DNA of 61,915 nucleotides from Candidatus Hydrogenedentota bacterium (GCA_016209895.1 JACQVH010000110.1:1-61915), one strand, 5' to 3'; counted from the stretch's first letter, positions 13,078-59,871 are shown. Numbers and translations are program-made. The notes: generated by a model from the sequence alone, not told the origin.

Positions 13078-13157
13078 GATCCTCAAAATATCCTCAGACT
13101 GAAGTTTCCAATAGAACTGACCAAAATGGCTTCCTCACACGTCAACGCCACCCCTCC

Positions 13158-13232
13158 CTGTCATGCTGAGCGCAGTCCTCACTGTCATGCCGAGCGAGGC
13201 CTACCTGTCATTCTGAGTGCAGCGAAGAATCT
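13158..13232 (+). repeat. Three tandem REP/RPE-like arm starts (CTGTCATNCYGAGYG), the last one complete to AAGAATCT
   Basis: Units at 13158, 13182 and 13205; same family as 2428 and 21818. Confidence 0.75.
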
Positions 13233-13319
13233 AGCAGACCAACCTAGCATACACACTCCCGCACAGAGGCCGCACGTTTTCCGCTACCCCGAAAACAACC
13301 CGGAGGCTTCTTCTTGTCG

Positions 13320-13354
13320 CTGACCACTGACCACTGATCACTGGTCACTAGTCA
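13320..13354. repeat. Five heptamer tandem repeats (CTGACCA type) directly after the melA stop
   Basis: CTGACCA CTGACCA CTGATCA CTGGTCA CTAGTCA. Confidence 0.8.
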
Positions 13355-20593: not shown

Positions 20594-20616
20594 CCTACGG
20601 CCTACGGCCTACAGCC
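20594..20616. repeat. Orphan CCTACRG heptamer arm
   Basis: CCTACGGCCTACGGCCTACAGCC; near-identical to the arms at 57863-57893 and 58277-58300. Confidence 0.8.
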
Positions 20617-56530: not shown

Positions 56531-57841
56531 TCACACCAGTTCCTTAAGTCGGCCCGCGGACGGCATCACCTTCGCCTCGATTCCCCGCGTGTTCGGTAAC
56601 GGCCCTTCCGGACTGATCCCAAGCAATTGATACATGGTGGCAATCAAATCCTGCGGATGAACCGGCCGTTCGCTCACCTCTTCGCCGGTCGCGTCCGTGG
56701 AACCAACCACGTGCCCGCCCTTGAACCCGCCGCCCGCAACTACGGCCGAAAAACAGTTGCCGTGATGCCCGCGACCCCCGTTCCAAGGCGCCTCCCACTG
56801 AACTTTCGGCGTCCGCCCGAATTCGCCGCTCCACCACACGATGGTGCTCTCGAGCAAACCGCGGTCGGTCAAATCCTGCAACAACGTCGCCAGGCCGCGG
56901 TCCAGTTCCGGCAGTTTCCGCCGCATGATCTCGAAGTGCTGTTTATGCGTGTCCCAGCCTTTGTAGTTGATGGTGACATAAGGCACGCCCTGCTCGACCA
57001 GCCGGCGTGCCGTCAGACACGACTGGCCGAACGTGTTGCGGCCATATTGTTCCCGTACTTCGTCCTTTTCCTGCGAAAGATCGAACAGCTTCCGGGCTTC
57101 TCCGAACATCAGCTCATAAGCGTGCTCCTCGCACTGGTCCAGCCGTTCGAATTGCGAGCTGCCCGGCATGGCCTTCCCAAGCGAATCGAGCGCATGAAGC
57201 AATTCCCGCCGCCCACGCTGGCGCTCATCCGTAATACCCGCGGCGACGATTCCCTCCACGGCAAATTGTTTCTGATTGGGATCGCCCCCGGTCGCAAAAG
57301 GCTTGTAGCGGGATTCCAGAAAGCCGGCCTCGGAGAAACGGCCCTGAAGCTCAGTCAACACGATGTACGGGGGGACAATCCCCTGATAGCCATGGTCGTA
57401 ACCCTTGAACACGGACACGACTGTCCCCACGGATGGGTAAACCACCCGGTCGCCGCTCTCGTGACCGGTCTGCACGAGGTACGAGGCGGTCTCATGGGCG
57501 TTCACCCCATGCGTCATGCTGCGGATAATCGAGTACTTGTCCGCCTGCTGCGCAAGCCTGGCCAGCGGTTCACCGATCTGAATTCCGTCCGCATTCGTCG
57601 GGATCGCCTTATTCAGCGGGCCGCAGTAGTCGTAGCCCGCCCCCGGTTTCGGATCGAAAGTGTCGAGATGGCATGGGCCGCCCCACATCCAAATCTGAAT
57701 CACGGACTTCGCGCGTGCCGCTATGCTGGCCGTCCGTGCTTGCACTCCCGCGCGCTCGCCAAGCGCCAATCCGGCCGCCCCAAGAAGTCCCAATTTCAAT
57801 GCCTGGCGGCGGCTCATGCCCTTGGTTCGTTGGTTGTCCAT
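56531..57841 (-). CDS. DUF1501 protein with Tat-like signal
   Basis: SRRQALK, WMWGGPCHLDTFDPKP, YGRNTFGQSCL.ARRLVE.GV, GWDTH and GEFGRTP; GGAGA RBS before ATG 57841. Confidence 0.92.
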   Translation of the reverse strand: MDNQRTKGMSRRQALKLGLLGAAGLALGERAGVQARTASIAARAKSVIQIWMWGGPCHLDTFDPKPGAGYDYCGPLNKAIPTNADGIQIGEPLARLAQQADKYSIIRSMTHGVNAHETASYLVQTGHESGDRVVYPSVGTVVSVFKGYDHGYQGIVPPYIVLTELQGRFSEAGFLESRYKPFATGGDPNQKQFAVEGIVAAGITDERQRGRRELLHALDSLGKAMPGSSQFERLDQCEEHAYELMFGEARKLFDLSQEKDEVREQYGRNTFGQSCLTARRLVEQGVPYVTINYKGWDTHKQHFEIMRRKLPELDRGLATLLQDLTDRGLLESTIVWWSGEFGRTPKVQWEAPWNGGRGHHGNCFSAVVAGGGFKGGHVVGSTDATGEEVSERPVHPQDLIATMYQLLGISPEGPLPNTRGIEAKVMPSAGRLKELV

Positions 57842-57862
57842 CGTCATTCTCCATGCCCTATT

Positions 57863-57893
57863 AGGCTGTAGGCTGTAGACCGTAGGCTGTAGG
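57863..57893. repeat. Left inverted heptamer arm of the four-helix-bundle cassette
   Basis: AGGCTGTAGGCTGTAGACCGTAGGCTGTAGG; abuts the gene's stop codon. Confidence 0.9.
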
Positions 57894-58247
57894 TTAGCGG
57901 CGAAGGGCGCGTAGTAGTCCGTTGAGGACTTTGCATGCCTCTTCACACTGCATGTGGACAGCTTTGTAATCTGCCTCCTTCACGTAGTTGAGCTTCCAAG
58001 CAAGCGTCAATTGATACTGAAGTTCGCCTGAGGAACCATAGGCAATATCGAGAAAATGCCAGTAGTCGGCTTCGGTGTGCCGCGCACAGCCTTCTACGAT
58101 GTTCGAAGCGACGGACACCGCCGCGCGACGCATCTGGGTGGTGAGCCCAAACTGTTCCTCCTTCGGAAACGCCCGTGTGACCGTATAAATCTTCATCGCT
58201 AACGCATCGGCCAACTCAAACGCCCTCAACTTCGTATGGTCCCTCAT
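57894..58247 (-). CDS. Four-helix-bundle protein (23S rRNA intervening-sequence protein family)
   Basis: FPKEEQFGLTTQMRRAAVSVASNIVEG...FLDIAYGSSGELQYQL; GGAGG RBS; 117 aa. Confidence 0.93.
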   Translation of the reverse strand: MRDHTKLRAFELADALAMKIYTVTRAFPKEEQFGLTTQMRRAAVSVASNIVEGCARHTEADYWHFLDIAYGSSGELQYQLTLAWKLNYVKEADYKAVHMQCEEACKVLNGLLRALRR

Positions 58248-58276
58248 CCTATCTCCCTCCAATCGCCAAACCATCC

Positions 58277-58300
58277 CCTACAGCCTACGGCCTACAGCCT
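58277..58300. repeat. Right inverted heptamer arm of the four-helix-bundle cassette
   Basis: CCTACAGCCTACGGCCTACAGCCT; its reverse complement matches 57870-57893 at 23/24 nt. Confidence 0.9.
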
Positions 58301-58305
58301 CACTC

Positions 58306-59871
58306 TCAATGTCTGTACAAGAACTCCTTCGTATTGATCAGCGCCCACGCCAAATCCGCCGCGGCCTGCTCCGGGCGCAACCCGCTGCTTTGAGCATAGG
58401 CCTCAGCCGCTGCCACTTCGTCCGGGTTTGGAAACCGTGACAGAATCATCAGGTACATACCCCGGATGATCCAGCGCCGGTTCCCGTTACTGCCTGCAAA
58501 TAGCGCGCGCAGCCGCGGGCTCCGCTCGATCTTGCGCTGAAGGTCGCTCGAGTTAAGCAAGTACGACCGCTGCGCGTCCGACGATTGATTGTTGCGCTCA
58601 GACTCCAGCCCGGTATCGCGGGCGGGGCGGCCGAACGTTTCAAGAAACGAACTGGTTATACTGCCGTCCGCCAACGCGATCGTCCGCTGGTGCTCCGGGA
58701 TATAGGTGAAAGGTTCGGGAATGGCGCTCGAATAACCCTCGCCGGTTCCGCCGATCCACGACAGAGCATCAATCAACACCTCCGCATCGAGCCGCCGCAC
58801 CGAATAGTGCGCGAACAGCGCTTCGGCCTCCGGGTGGTCGCTGCGCGGGACCGAGGACTGCTGATACGTGCGCGAGTTTAGGATATCGCGGTAAATTTGT
58901 CGCAGATCGTAGCCGGAACTCACCAGTTCCTTTTCGAGATAAGCCAATAGTTCCGGATTCACCGGTGGATTGTCCGGCCGAATGTCATCCGGTTCATGGA
59001 TAATGCCGCGTCCGAGCAGCCACGCCCAGATGCGGTTCACAACGTTCCGCGCAAACCAGGGGTTCTCCGGGGCGATCAGCCAATCCGCAAAGACCCGACG
59101 CGGGTCCTGCCCCGGCGGAATCTGCGTCTTCACGTCATCGGGGAAAATCGCGTCCAGCGGCTCGGCCGGCGCCGGGTCGAGGTGTACAATTTCCTCCTTC
59201 CACTCGGCGGTCGTCTTGTAGGCAATCCGCGAGAAGAAGGCGGCCATTCCGGCACGCCGTTCTTTGGGCCAATGCTCGGTGCGCGTCCCCATGAAAGTTA
59301 GAGCCACCGCGTCGGCGATGGCGGCGGGCTCGCGGCCTTGCACGGCGCGATAGAAATTGACCGGCGGCACGCGGAAATTGCTCCCGCTTGAAGTCAACAG
59401 TTCGCGGACGAATTCGTCGTAGGGCTTGTTCTGTCGAATCGCATCCCGAATCCAACGATGATACGCCTGTACTGCGTTCGGCCACAGATTGATCGGGAAT
59501 TCCGACTTGACCCGCAGCAGATCACACCACTTCAGCGCCCAATAGTCGGCGAATTCCTCCCGCGCCAGCAGCGAGTCAATCAACGCGGCTCGTTTGTCCG
59601 GACGCTTATTCCACAAGAACTCCCGCACCGCCGGCGGCTCCGGCAACGTGCCAATGACATCCAGGTACGCCCGCCGAATAAAGACCTCGTCCGAACACGG
59701 ACTCGCCGGTTCGATGCCCCGCTCGCGTAGCGCGGCCAGCACGTGGACATCAATGGCGTTCCCGGTTACGGGCCACGATTCGCTCTCGAACGGGCGCACC
59801 GCTGGCGAACCGGCCCCTTGGCCGTTCGCAGCCACGATAAGAATCGCCACTGTAACTAGGGATTTGCTCAA
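58306..59871 (-). CDS. DUF1549/DUF1553 protein
   Basis: FIRRAYLDVIGTLP, KPYDEFVRELL, NPWFARNVVNRIW..LLGRGI, RRLDAE and DLAWALINTKEF. Confidence 0.9.
   Translation of the reverse strand: MSKSLVTVAILIVAANGQGAGSPAVRPFESESWPVTGNAIDVHVLAALRERGIEPASPCSDEVFIRRAYLDVIGTLPEPPAVREFLWNKRPDKRAALIDSLLAREEFADYWALKWCDLLRVKSEFPINLWPNAVQAYHRWIRDAIRQNKPYDEFVRELLTSSGSNFRVPPVNFYRAVQGREPAAIADAVALTFMGTRTEHWPKERRAGMAAFFSRIAYKTTAEWKEEIVHLDPAPAEPLDAIFPDDVKTQIPPGQDPRRVFADWLIAPENPWFARNVVNRIWAWLLGRGIIHEPDDIRPDNPPVNPELLAYLEKELVSSGYDLRQIYRDILNSRTYQQSSVPRSDHPEAEALFAHYSVRRLDAEVLIDALSWIGGTGEGYSSAIPEPFTYIPEHQRTIALADGSITSSFLETFGRPARDTGLESERNNQSSDAQRSYLLNSSDLQRKIERSPRLRALFAGSNGNRRWIIRGMYLMILSRFPNPDEVAAAEAYAQSSGLRPEQAAADLAWALINTKEFLYRH

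Follow-up and report, generated by a model that had tools for sequence, protein, structure and literature searches.

The 438-nt segment at positions 57863-58300 of the window (the whole stretch of DNA analysed here, 61,915 nucleotides from a Candidatus Hydrogenedentota bacterium) may well be a cassette of the intervening-sequence (IVS) type, in which a small four-helix-bundle (4HB) protein is paired with a cognate heptamer repeat, and in which two inverted arrays of that repeat would form a stem that is a plausible RNase III substrate. We put the probability of this reading at about 0.5. The cassette is one member of a widespread class that appears to be undescribed in print.

All genes of the locus lie on the minus strand. 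The upstream host gene (58306..59871) encodes a DUF1549/DUF1553 protein with PSCyt2 and PSD1 domains (PF07587, E 4.5e-42; PF07583, E 4.7e-33) and ends with a TGA at 58308-58306. A spacer of 5 nt, GAGTG, leads to the 5' arm (58277..58300, AGGCTGTAGGCCGTAGGCTGTAGG), in which TRF found 3.4 units of AGGCTGT/AGGCCGT and whose sense strand is G-rich. Between this arm and the start codon lies a spacer of 29 nt (58248..58276) with a Shine-Dalgarno-like GGAGGGAG, followed by the 4HB gene itself (57894..58247; 117 aa plus stop), which runs from the ATG at 58247 to the TAA at 57896-57894 and whose start, MRDHTKLRAFELA, is kept in relatives. The 3' arm (57863..57893) directly abuts this TAA, its first base being 57893, and was resolved by TRF into 4.6 units, CCTACAG/CCTACGG, that are complementary to those of the 5' arm; the arrays of both arms have period 7. 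The downstream host gene, DUF1501 (56531..57847; PF07394, E 8.8e-100), begins with the ATG at 57847 or that at 57841 and is preceded by GGAG at 57852-57849, the last unit of the 3' arm standing 15-21 nt before it. The repeat search paired positions 57870-57893 with 58277-58300, two inverted arms of 24 nt that are 383 nt apart and complementary at 23/24 positions (96%), and the sole mismatch places a G opposite a U in the sense RNA. A first-pass annotation, made from the sequence alone, had put a 4HB gene between DUF1553 and DUF1501 with one arm 5 nt after the upstream stop and the other at the gene's own stop, and this description was confirmed as written.

The 438-nt cassette contains no transposase ORF, and a consensus scan found no promoter or terminator inside it. 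The flanks, GAGTG and AATAG, show no duplication, and no target-site duplication was visible at the cassette edges; a mobilising enzyme acting in trans is conceivable. The cassette resembles MITEs and insertion sequences in being a small unit that is bounded by inverted repeats and inserted into a spacer, and gene-less derivatives occur in one relative, G043. It differs from them in that its arms are tandem arrays of variable length and in that it has neither a transposase nor a visible target-site duplication, and on the latter two grounds an assignment to MITEs or insertion sequences was rejected. A CRISPR array was ruled out because the cassette units are contiguous at period 7, without unique spacers. 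An ORF-bearing IVS located in 23S rRNA was also ruled out, as no Rfam family reached its gathering score anywhere in the 61,915-nt stretch and the flanks are the DUF1553 and DUF1501 genes. Elsewhere in the window, at 20594-20614, the unit of the cassette recurs as a solo (CCTACGG)3 array away from any 4HB gene; we also observed a (CAGTGGT)n-type heptamer array at 13316-13349, with no 4HB gene near, and a tandem repeat of period 24 at 13153-13222 (three copies, 78% matches).

Among the public sequencing runs listed as containing the analysed stretch, three are DNA runs from a single groundwater study and none is an RNA run. One public DNA contig extends, with 0 differences, from inside the 3' arm through the 4HB gene and the 5' arm into DUF1553, and a second reaches from DUF1501 as far as the point where the 3' arm ends; the contigs of the three runs showed no joint in which the cassette is skipped. 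The public metagenome contigs break at 57862-57893, where their summed depth rises from about 5-12 to 113-603. The breaks together with this spike in depth indicate that arrays of the AGGCTGT unit are common in those samples and fragment the assemblies.

The 4HB protein matched PF05635 over profile positions 2-106 of 106 (E 1.8e-35; 121.8 bits against a cut-off of 33.8) and TIGR02436 (E 7.2e-35; 119.5 bits against a cut-off of 24). The closest solved structure was 2gsc_A (E 2.2e-23), and the solved homologue entries have 5 chains each. The only other Pfam match was to the bAvd model PF22296 (E 2.7e-6), which fell below its curated cut-off, as did the match to a second Avd model, NF033474 (E 5.9e-7; 29.8 bits against a cut-off of 80). 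The protein is thus related to Avd, the DGR accessory protein, in fold and in sequence, and nucleic-acid handling is plausible for it. However, there is no reverse transcriptase near the cassette and no pair of template and variable repeats, and the two RVT_1 genes of the source genome (G000) are on contigs C34 and C236, whereas its 4HB genes are on C61, C119 and C230. Because the reverse transcriptases lie on other contigs than the 4HB genes, and because NF033474 scored below its cut-off, we rejected a DGR and its Avd protein as the identity of the cassette. We also ruled out a REPIN-RAYT system as judged by the protein, since the cassette gene has no match to a Y1 (IS200/IS605-type) transposase.

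Members of this protein family were first discovered inside ORF-bearing IVSs of 23S rRNA, which also occur in Leptospira. The IVS of Coxiella burnetii is, according to the abstract that reports it, 428 nt long, contains the S23p ORF, is excised by RNase III and is described as selfish and horizontally acquired. The cassette is like it in its PF05635 protein, in its size (438 vs 428 nt) and in the complementary terminal arms that form a long stem around the ORF. It differs in lying between two protein-coding genes and not in rRNA, and in that its arms are tandem heptamers whose unit follows the protein subfamily and is dispersed throughout the genome; moreover, cutting by RNase III was demonstrated for Coxiella, as the same abstract states, whereas the cassette is known from its sequence. 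The background given in the first-pass annotation (the IVS family, excision by RNase III and kinship to Avd) fits both the Pfam and TIGRFAM matches and that abstract.

We analyzed the folding of the cassette RNA. The MFE fold of 57850-58310 closes the arm stem, with z = -4.74 and 0/100 shuffles as stable, and so the 24-bp stem with a single G-U mismatch that had been proposed earlier was recovered both by the repeat search and by folding. The pair probability along the stem has a mean of 0.99 and a minimum of 0.82, and the energy of the arm duplex is -53.0 kcal/mol in the sense RNA vs -47.5 in the antisense RNA. The complementary terminal arms enclose the ORF in a stem-loop, as in IVS-type elements, and G000 encodes an RNase III gene. 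We propose that in the DUF1553-DUF1501 transcript the arms would pair into the 24-bp stem, which host RNase III could cut, removing the cassette RNA and separating the host cistrons in the manner of the Coxiella IVS, and that the 4HB protein and the heptamer array form a cognate pair in which the protein would bind the array as RNA or as DNA. For the host operon, the insertion may uncouple the DUF1553 and DUF1501 cistrons.

The stability of the stem, the RNase III gene in G000 and the precedent of the 428-nt Coxiella IVS would also suit a selfish element that works at the RNA level only, with arms that serve only to form a stem through which RNase III excises the cassette from its transcript, and a unit that is common to a subfamily by joint descent. 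If the arms were maintained as a helix in the sense RNA, G.U should exceed A.C among their mismatches. We counted 83 G.U and 63 A.C mismatches (p = 0.12), along with 125 transversions; the bias is not significant, and this weak excess means that selection on a sense-RNA helix is not supported by the mismatch spectrum. Across 65 loci, the sense strand of the 5' arm is consistently rich in G (G 975 vs C 398). The idea that the arms act as three-frame stops against incoming translation was dropped, since such stops occur in 17/65 5' arms in sense and 8/65 in antisense, a weak effect of base composition and no rule.

Next, we asked whether the cassette has a counterpart in relatives. A search with the DUF1501 protein (E <= 1e-100) gave 15 loci in 14/40 related genomes, and none of these 15 loci has a 4HB match (E <= 1e-5). 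Fourteen of the loci, from 13 genomes, carry both DUF1553 and DUF1501, and the remaining one is cut by a contig end. All 14 comparable junctions, one of them probably a paralogue at 54% identity, are empty: they contain no 4HB gene, the gaps between the aligned gene ends are 22-163 nt, and inspection of these gaps revealed no heptamer arrays. DUF1501 identity at these junctions is 54-75%. As the 13 genomes belong to other genera, their empty junctions show that the 4HB gene is not syntenically fixed, and the comparison does not date the insertion. In the window, 5 + ~21 nt (~26 nt) of spacer remain outside the cassette, which widens the spacer between DUF1553 and DUF1501 to ~460 nt. These sequence comparisons show that the cassette was inserted into what was a short spacer between DUF1553 and DUF1501. 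At the other two cassettes of G000, the 4HB gene was found in 0/19 (C119) and 0/10 (C230) of the relatives' junctions, where ~1.5 kb downstream was covered; the case of C119 is weaker because a different gene lies downstream of it than in the relatives. These results agree with the earlier suggestion of a self-contained inserted unit that has no transposase.

We then examined whether the layout of a gene between inverted arrays is common in the protein family. The source genome has three strong PF05635 genes, all with inverted arms and each with a different unit. The unit of the C61 cassette (57863-58300) is of the GGCTGTA type, the C119 gene (C119:52154-52468) has GAGTTCC-type arms, and the arms of the C230 gene (C230:13851-14162) are of the TCGTAATCG type and include a 63-nt arm at 90%; CGATTACGA is the reverse complement of the C230 unit. 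In the taxonomic family, 38/54 genomes carry the PF05635 family, with 0-12 copies each. We scored 29 of 32 loci in these genomes, namely those flanked by 120 nt or more on each side; the other 3 were dropped. The median local-alignment score of the two flanks was 20.5 in inverted orientation, 9.0 in direct orientation and 8.5 between loci, and in comparison with 812 cross-locus pairs, 15/29 loci scored above the 99th percentile. The units vary by locus, and include GGTGRNC, GGGTTYC, AGTTGTC, GGAGTCA, TAGGAGT and others.

The same layout was found far outside the taxonomic family. Among the relatives of the window protein, the best 80 are 58-70% identical to it and are spread over many phyla, archaea included; for the C119 protein, the best 80 relatives likewise span many phyla, and they have GAGNNNN-type arms. 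Each set of 80 gave 74 loci with usable flanks, and an inverted score of at least 15 was reached by 45/74 relatives of the window protein (12/74 in direct orientation) and by 57/74 relatives of the C119 protein (8/74 in direct orientation). An arm on each side was not present in 18/80 loci of the former set and 17/74 of the latter, which lack at least one, and a copy of the 4HB gene on a Nostoc plasmid has one arm only. Taken together, these data show that the gene with inverted arrays is the rule for the PF05635 protein family, though not a universal one. Homologues are strongly enriched for inverted arms, a point that the first-pass annotation had suggested checking, but the targeting to operon junctions that it had proposed found no support: among 55 relatives' loci at which both neighbours were called, by ORF calls that are crude, the cassette was co-oriented with them in 21, antisense in 15 and between convergent or divergent neighbours in 19, and this near-random orientation does not support such targeting. 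Many of the relatives' 4HB loci sit at contig ends. Organisms found to carry a cassette include Adhaeretor mobilis HG15A2 (L096), Stieleria spp. (L121, L125) and Nostoc PCC 7120 (L147). Matches were found in 28 plasmid records, mostly cyanobacterial, and in none of 50,697 phage records.

We next compared the repeat units with the proteins that they flank. At least 2 units of AG[GAT]C[TCG]NN in both flanks, in cassette orientation, were present at 62/80 loci of window-protein relatives, at 0/29 genes of other subfamilies and at 0/52 controls displaced by 700-900 nt, so that here too inverted arms are enriched at homologues. The reciprocal comparison gave the same picture. Arms of AGNCNNN occurred in 53/80 relatives of the window protein vs 0/80 relatives of the C119 protein, and arms of GAGNNNN in 6/80 vs 42/80, respectively. 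Because neutral flanks should be unrecognisable at 60-70% protein identity, the core of the unit appears to be constrained. The two arms of one locus also change together at the variable positions of the unit: exact heptamers common to both arms amounted to 48% within a locus vs 16.5% between loci, a value that 0/2000 permutations reached. A fine code from residue to base was not visible in the overall identities of the window subfamily, in which proteins with the same dominant unit were 65.8% alike and those with different units 64.1%. The pairing of protein and repeat is thus well supported by comparative evidence, at the level of the subfamily.

These comparisons bear on two of the alternatives. 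The joint change of the two arms would be expected of an element acting on RNA only, but a unit core that is still recognisable at 58-70% protein identity across phyla would not, given that neutral arms should be lost over such distances, and descent leaves unexplained both the ~30 dispersed arrays per cassette type and their co-occurrence with the gene, which are described below; we consider that explanation distinctly unlikely. The other alternative is coincidence, in which heptamer arrays are common, microsatellite-like spacers and the gene merely happens to lie between two of them. Arrays of period 7 are indeed very abundant in G000, where TRF reported 217 at a score of at least 44 vs 6 of period 6 and 1 of period 8. 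Yet chance would hardly give 62/80 against 0/52 displaced controls and 0/29 other subfamilies, nor the reciprocal table of units, nor inverted scores that far exceed the direct ones, nor relatives' junctions that are empty of gene and arrays alike, and we regard coincidence as extremely improbable.

The repeats of the cassettes are also dispersed. After merging, G000 has 429 heptamer-type arrays, which are mostly solo, 28 having an inverted partner within 1.5 kb, and which sit in spacers beside stops and starts. The units of its three cassettes occupy 29 (window unit), 32 and 35 dispersed bins, compared with 0, 9 and 0 for the reversed controls. The commonest array class in G000, GAGCAAT/GAGCAAC/GAGTACC/GAGTTCC (at least 90 TRF rows), is of the GAGNNNN type, like the C119 arms and those of its relatives in other phyla. 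Such tandem 7-nt units at many loci are also characteristic of the known intergenic heptamer repeats, among them the STRR of cyanobacteria.

In the taxonomic family, the dispersed arrays are nearly confined to genomes with a gene of the matching subfamily. Taking a subfamily gene as one whose product is at least 58% identical to the window protein, at least 5 three-unit matches were present in 7/8 genomes with such a gene (partial in three of the eight) vs 2/46 without it, 54 genomes whose counts are not phylogenetically independent; the reversed-pattern control was near 0. The exceptions are G054 and G058, which have arrays and no gene, and G042, which has a partial gene and no arrays. CGGTGRN arrays behaved in the same way, being found only in 2 genomes of one genus that encode a protein at least 97% identical to L023 and in 0/52 others. 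The relative G043 has 3 intact genes and 897 three-unit pattern matches, and 8/10 array loci inspected there, chosen from the first places and partly for close plus and minus matches and so not at random, are gene-less hairpins with a short loop. Many of the G043 matches are ~70-nt hairpins in which a short loop separates (AGGCTKT)n from (AMAGCCT)n; its arrays combine AGGCTTT with AGGCTGT units, while AGGCTTC stands in arrays of its own. Outside G043, the number of arrays does not scale with the number of genes, and for the abundant G000 units GGTTTCC, GGATTGC, AAGGACA and AGGAGTC the assembly, which is 94% complete, contains no 4HB gene that matches.

This distribution raises the possibility of a system that acts on DNA and propagates repeats as REPIN-RAYT systems do. 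In those, a single-copy gene is associated with an inverted short repeat that co-occurs with it and whose copies are scattered over spacers, some of them as hairpin doublets. The cassette is similar in that inverted copies of a dispersed repeat stand on either side of its gene and this repeat co-occurs with the gene across genomes; it differs in having a 117-aa four-helix bundle in place of a Y1 (IS200/IS605-like) transposase and tandem 7-mers in place of a single palindrome. The 4HB protein would then spread or maintain the arrays and hairpins, either by itself or together with enzymes of the host, with the cassette as the autonomous form, the gene-less hairpins as the non-autonomous form and the RNA stem as incidental. 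The bracketing of 4HB genes by the dispersed repeat, the co-occurrence with its CGGTGRN replicate, the arrays of G043, the scatter of the closest relatives over many phyla including archaea and the weak G.U bias all fit a role at the DNA level. However, we know of no nuclease or recombinase activity of the four-helix-bundle fold and of no mobilising activity of the 4HB protein, and the missing target-site duplication, the predominance of solo arrays in G000, the unit classes that are orphans of any gene and the array numbers that do not follow gene numbers outside G043 argue against it. We regard such a system as unlikely.

Since the arrays lie beside stops and starts, the 4HB protein could instead be a domesticated regulator, that is, a host protein that binds nucleic acid at the dispersed arrays beside genes and whose own arms serve autoregulation. 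In a preprint on Nostoc, deletion of a heptamer repeat altered reporter output, and its available text postulates a binding partner that was not identified. But an insertion that has no counterpart in relatives, together with patchy copy numbers (0-12 per genome within one taxonomic family) and near relatives across phyla, is more in keeping with a mobile element than with a conserved regulator, and a regulator of this kind seems very unlikely.

Several heptamer repeats have been reported without such a gene. The available text of Rehm 2015 describes GGGAATC of Xanthomonas, which forms 70-75 convergent pairs capable of a stem-loop, and GGGGAYT of Nostoc as intergenic heptamer repeats, and that of MacGregor 2015 describes TAACTGA of Beggiatoaceae. 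Like the arrays studied here, these have period 7 and are over-represented, intergenic, present in both orientations and of unexplained function. We found no link between heptamer arrays and a 4HB gene in the available text of these two papers, and no published description of PF05635 genes linked to flanking heptamer arrays in a search whose scope left out subscription journals and supplements. A wider proposal, which we offer as tentative and somewhat doubtful, is that PF05635 proteins supply the partner that has been missing for the heptamer repeats of bacteria (STRR, GGGAATC, TAACTGA and the arrays here), each subfamily recognising its own 7-base word. There would then be a very widespread mobile element, with no transposase known for it, whose autonomous form is the gene with its inverted arrays; excision by RNase III would let it sit harmlessly in rRNA or mRNA, and its descendants that lack the gene would be the solo arrays and short hairpins. 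If true, this would tie a large family of 4HB/rRNA-IVS proteins, with solved structures and no function, to over-represented heptamer repeats, and the link between gene and array would explain why assemblies break at such arrays.

Two further arrangements were observed. On the Pseudanabaena plasmid NZ_CP112875.1 (45668-47215; L148), a 4HB gene lies between cas6 and cas4, flanked by long direct arrays, (AAAAGCT)n and (AAAAGCC)n; one more array, in inverted orientation, stands farther upstream. The available text of a large CRISPR screen names '23S rRNA IVP' among the array-associated proteins, and a layout of the L148 type may be the reason why large screens associate the family with CRISPR arrays. 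Finally, two distant 4HB-like ORFs of G000, C78:13129-13326 (-) and C104:49030-49176 (+), match PF05635 with E 2e-5 and 6e-5 and adjoin 9-mer arrays; on C78, an inverted pair of (AAGGACAGC)n and (TGTCCTTGC)n lies ~80 nt upstream of the ORF, and period-9 arrays are also frequent in G000.
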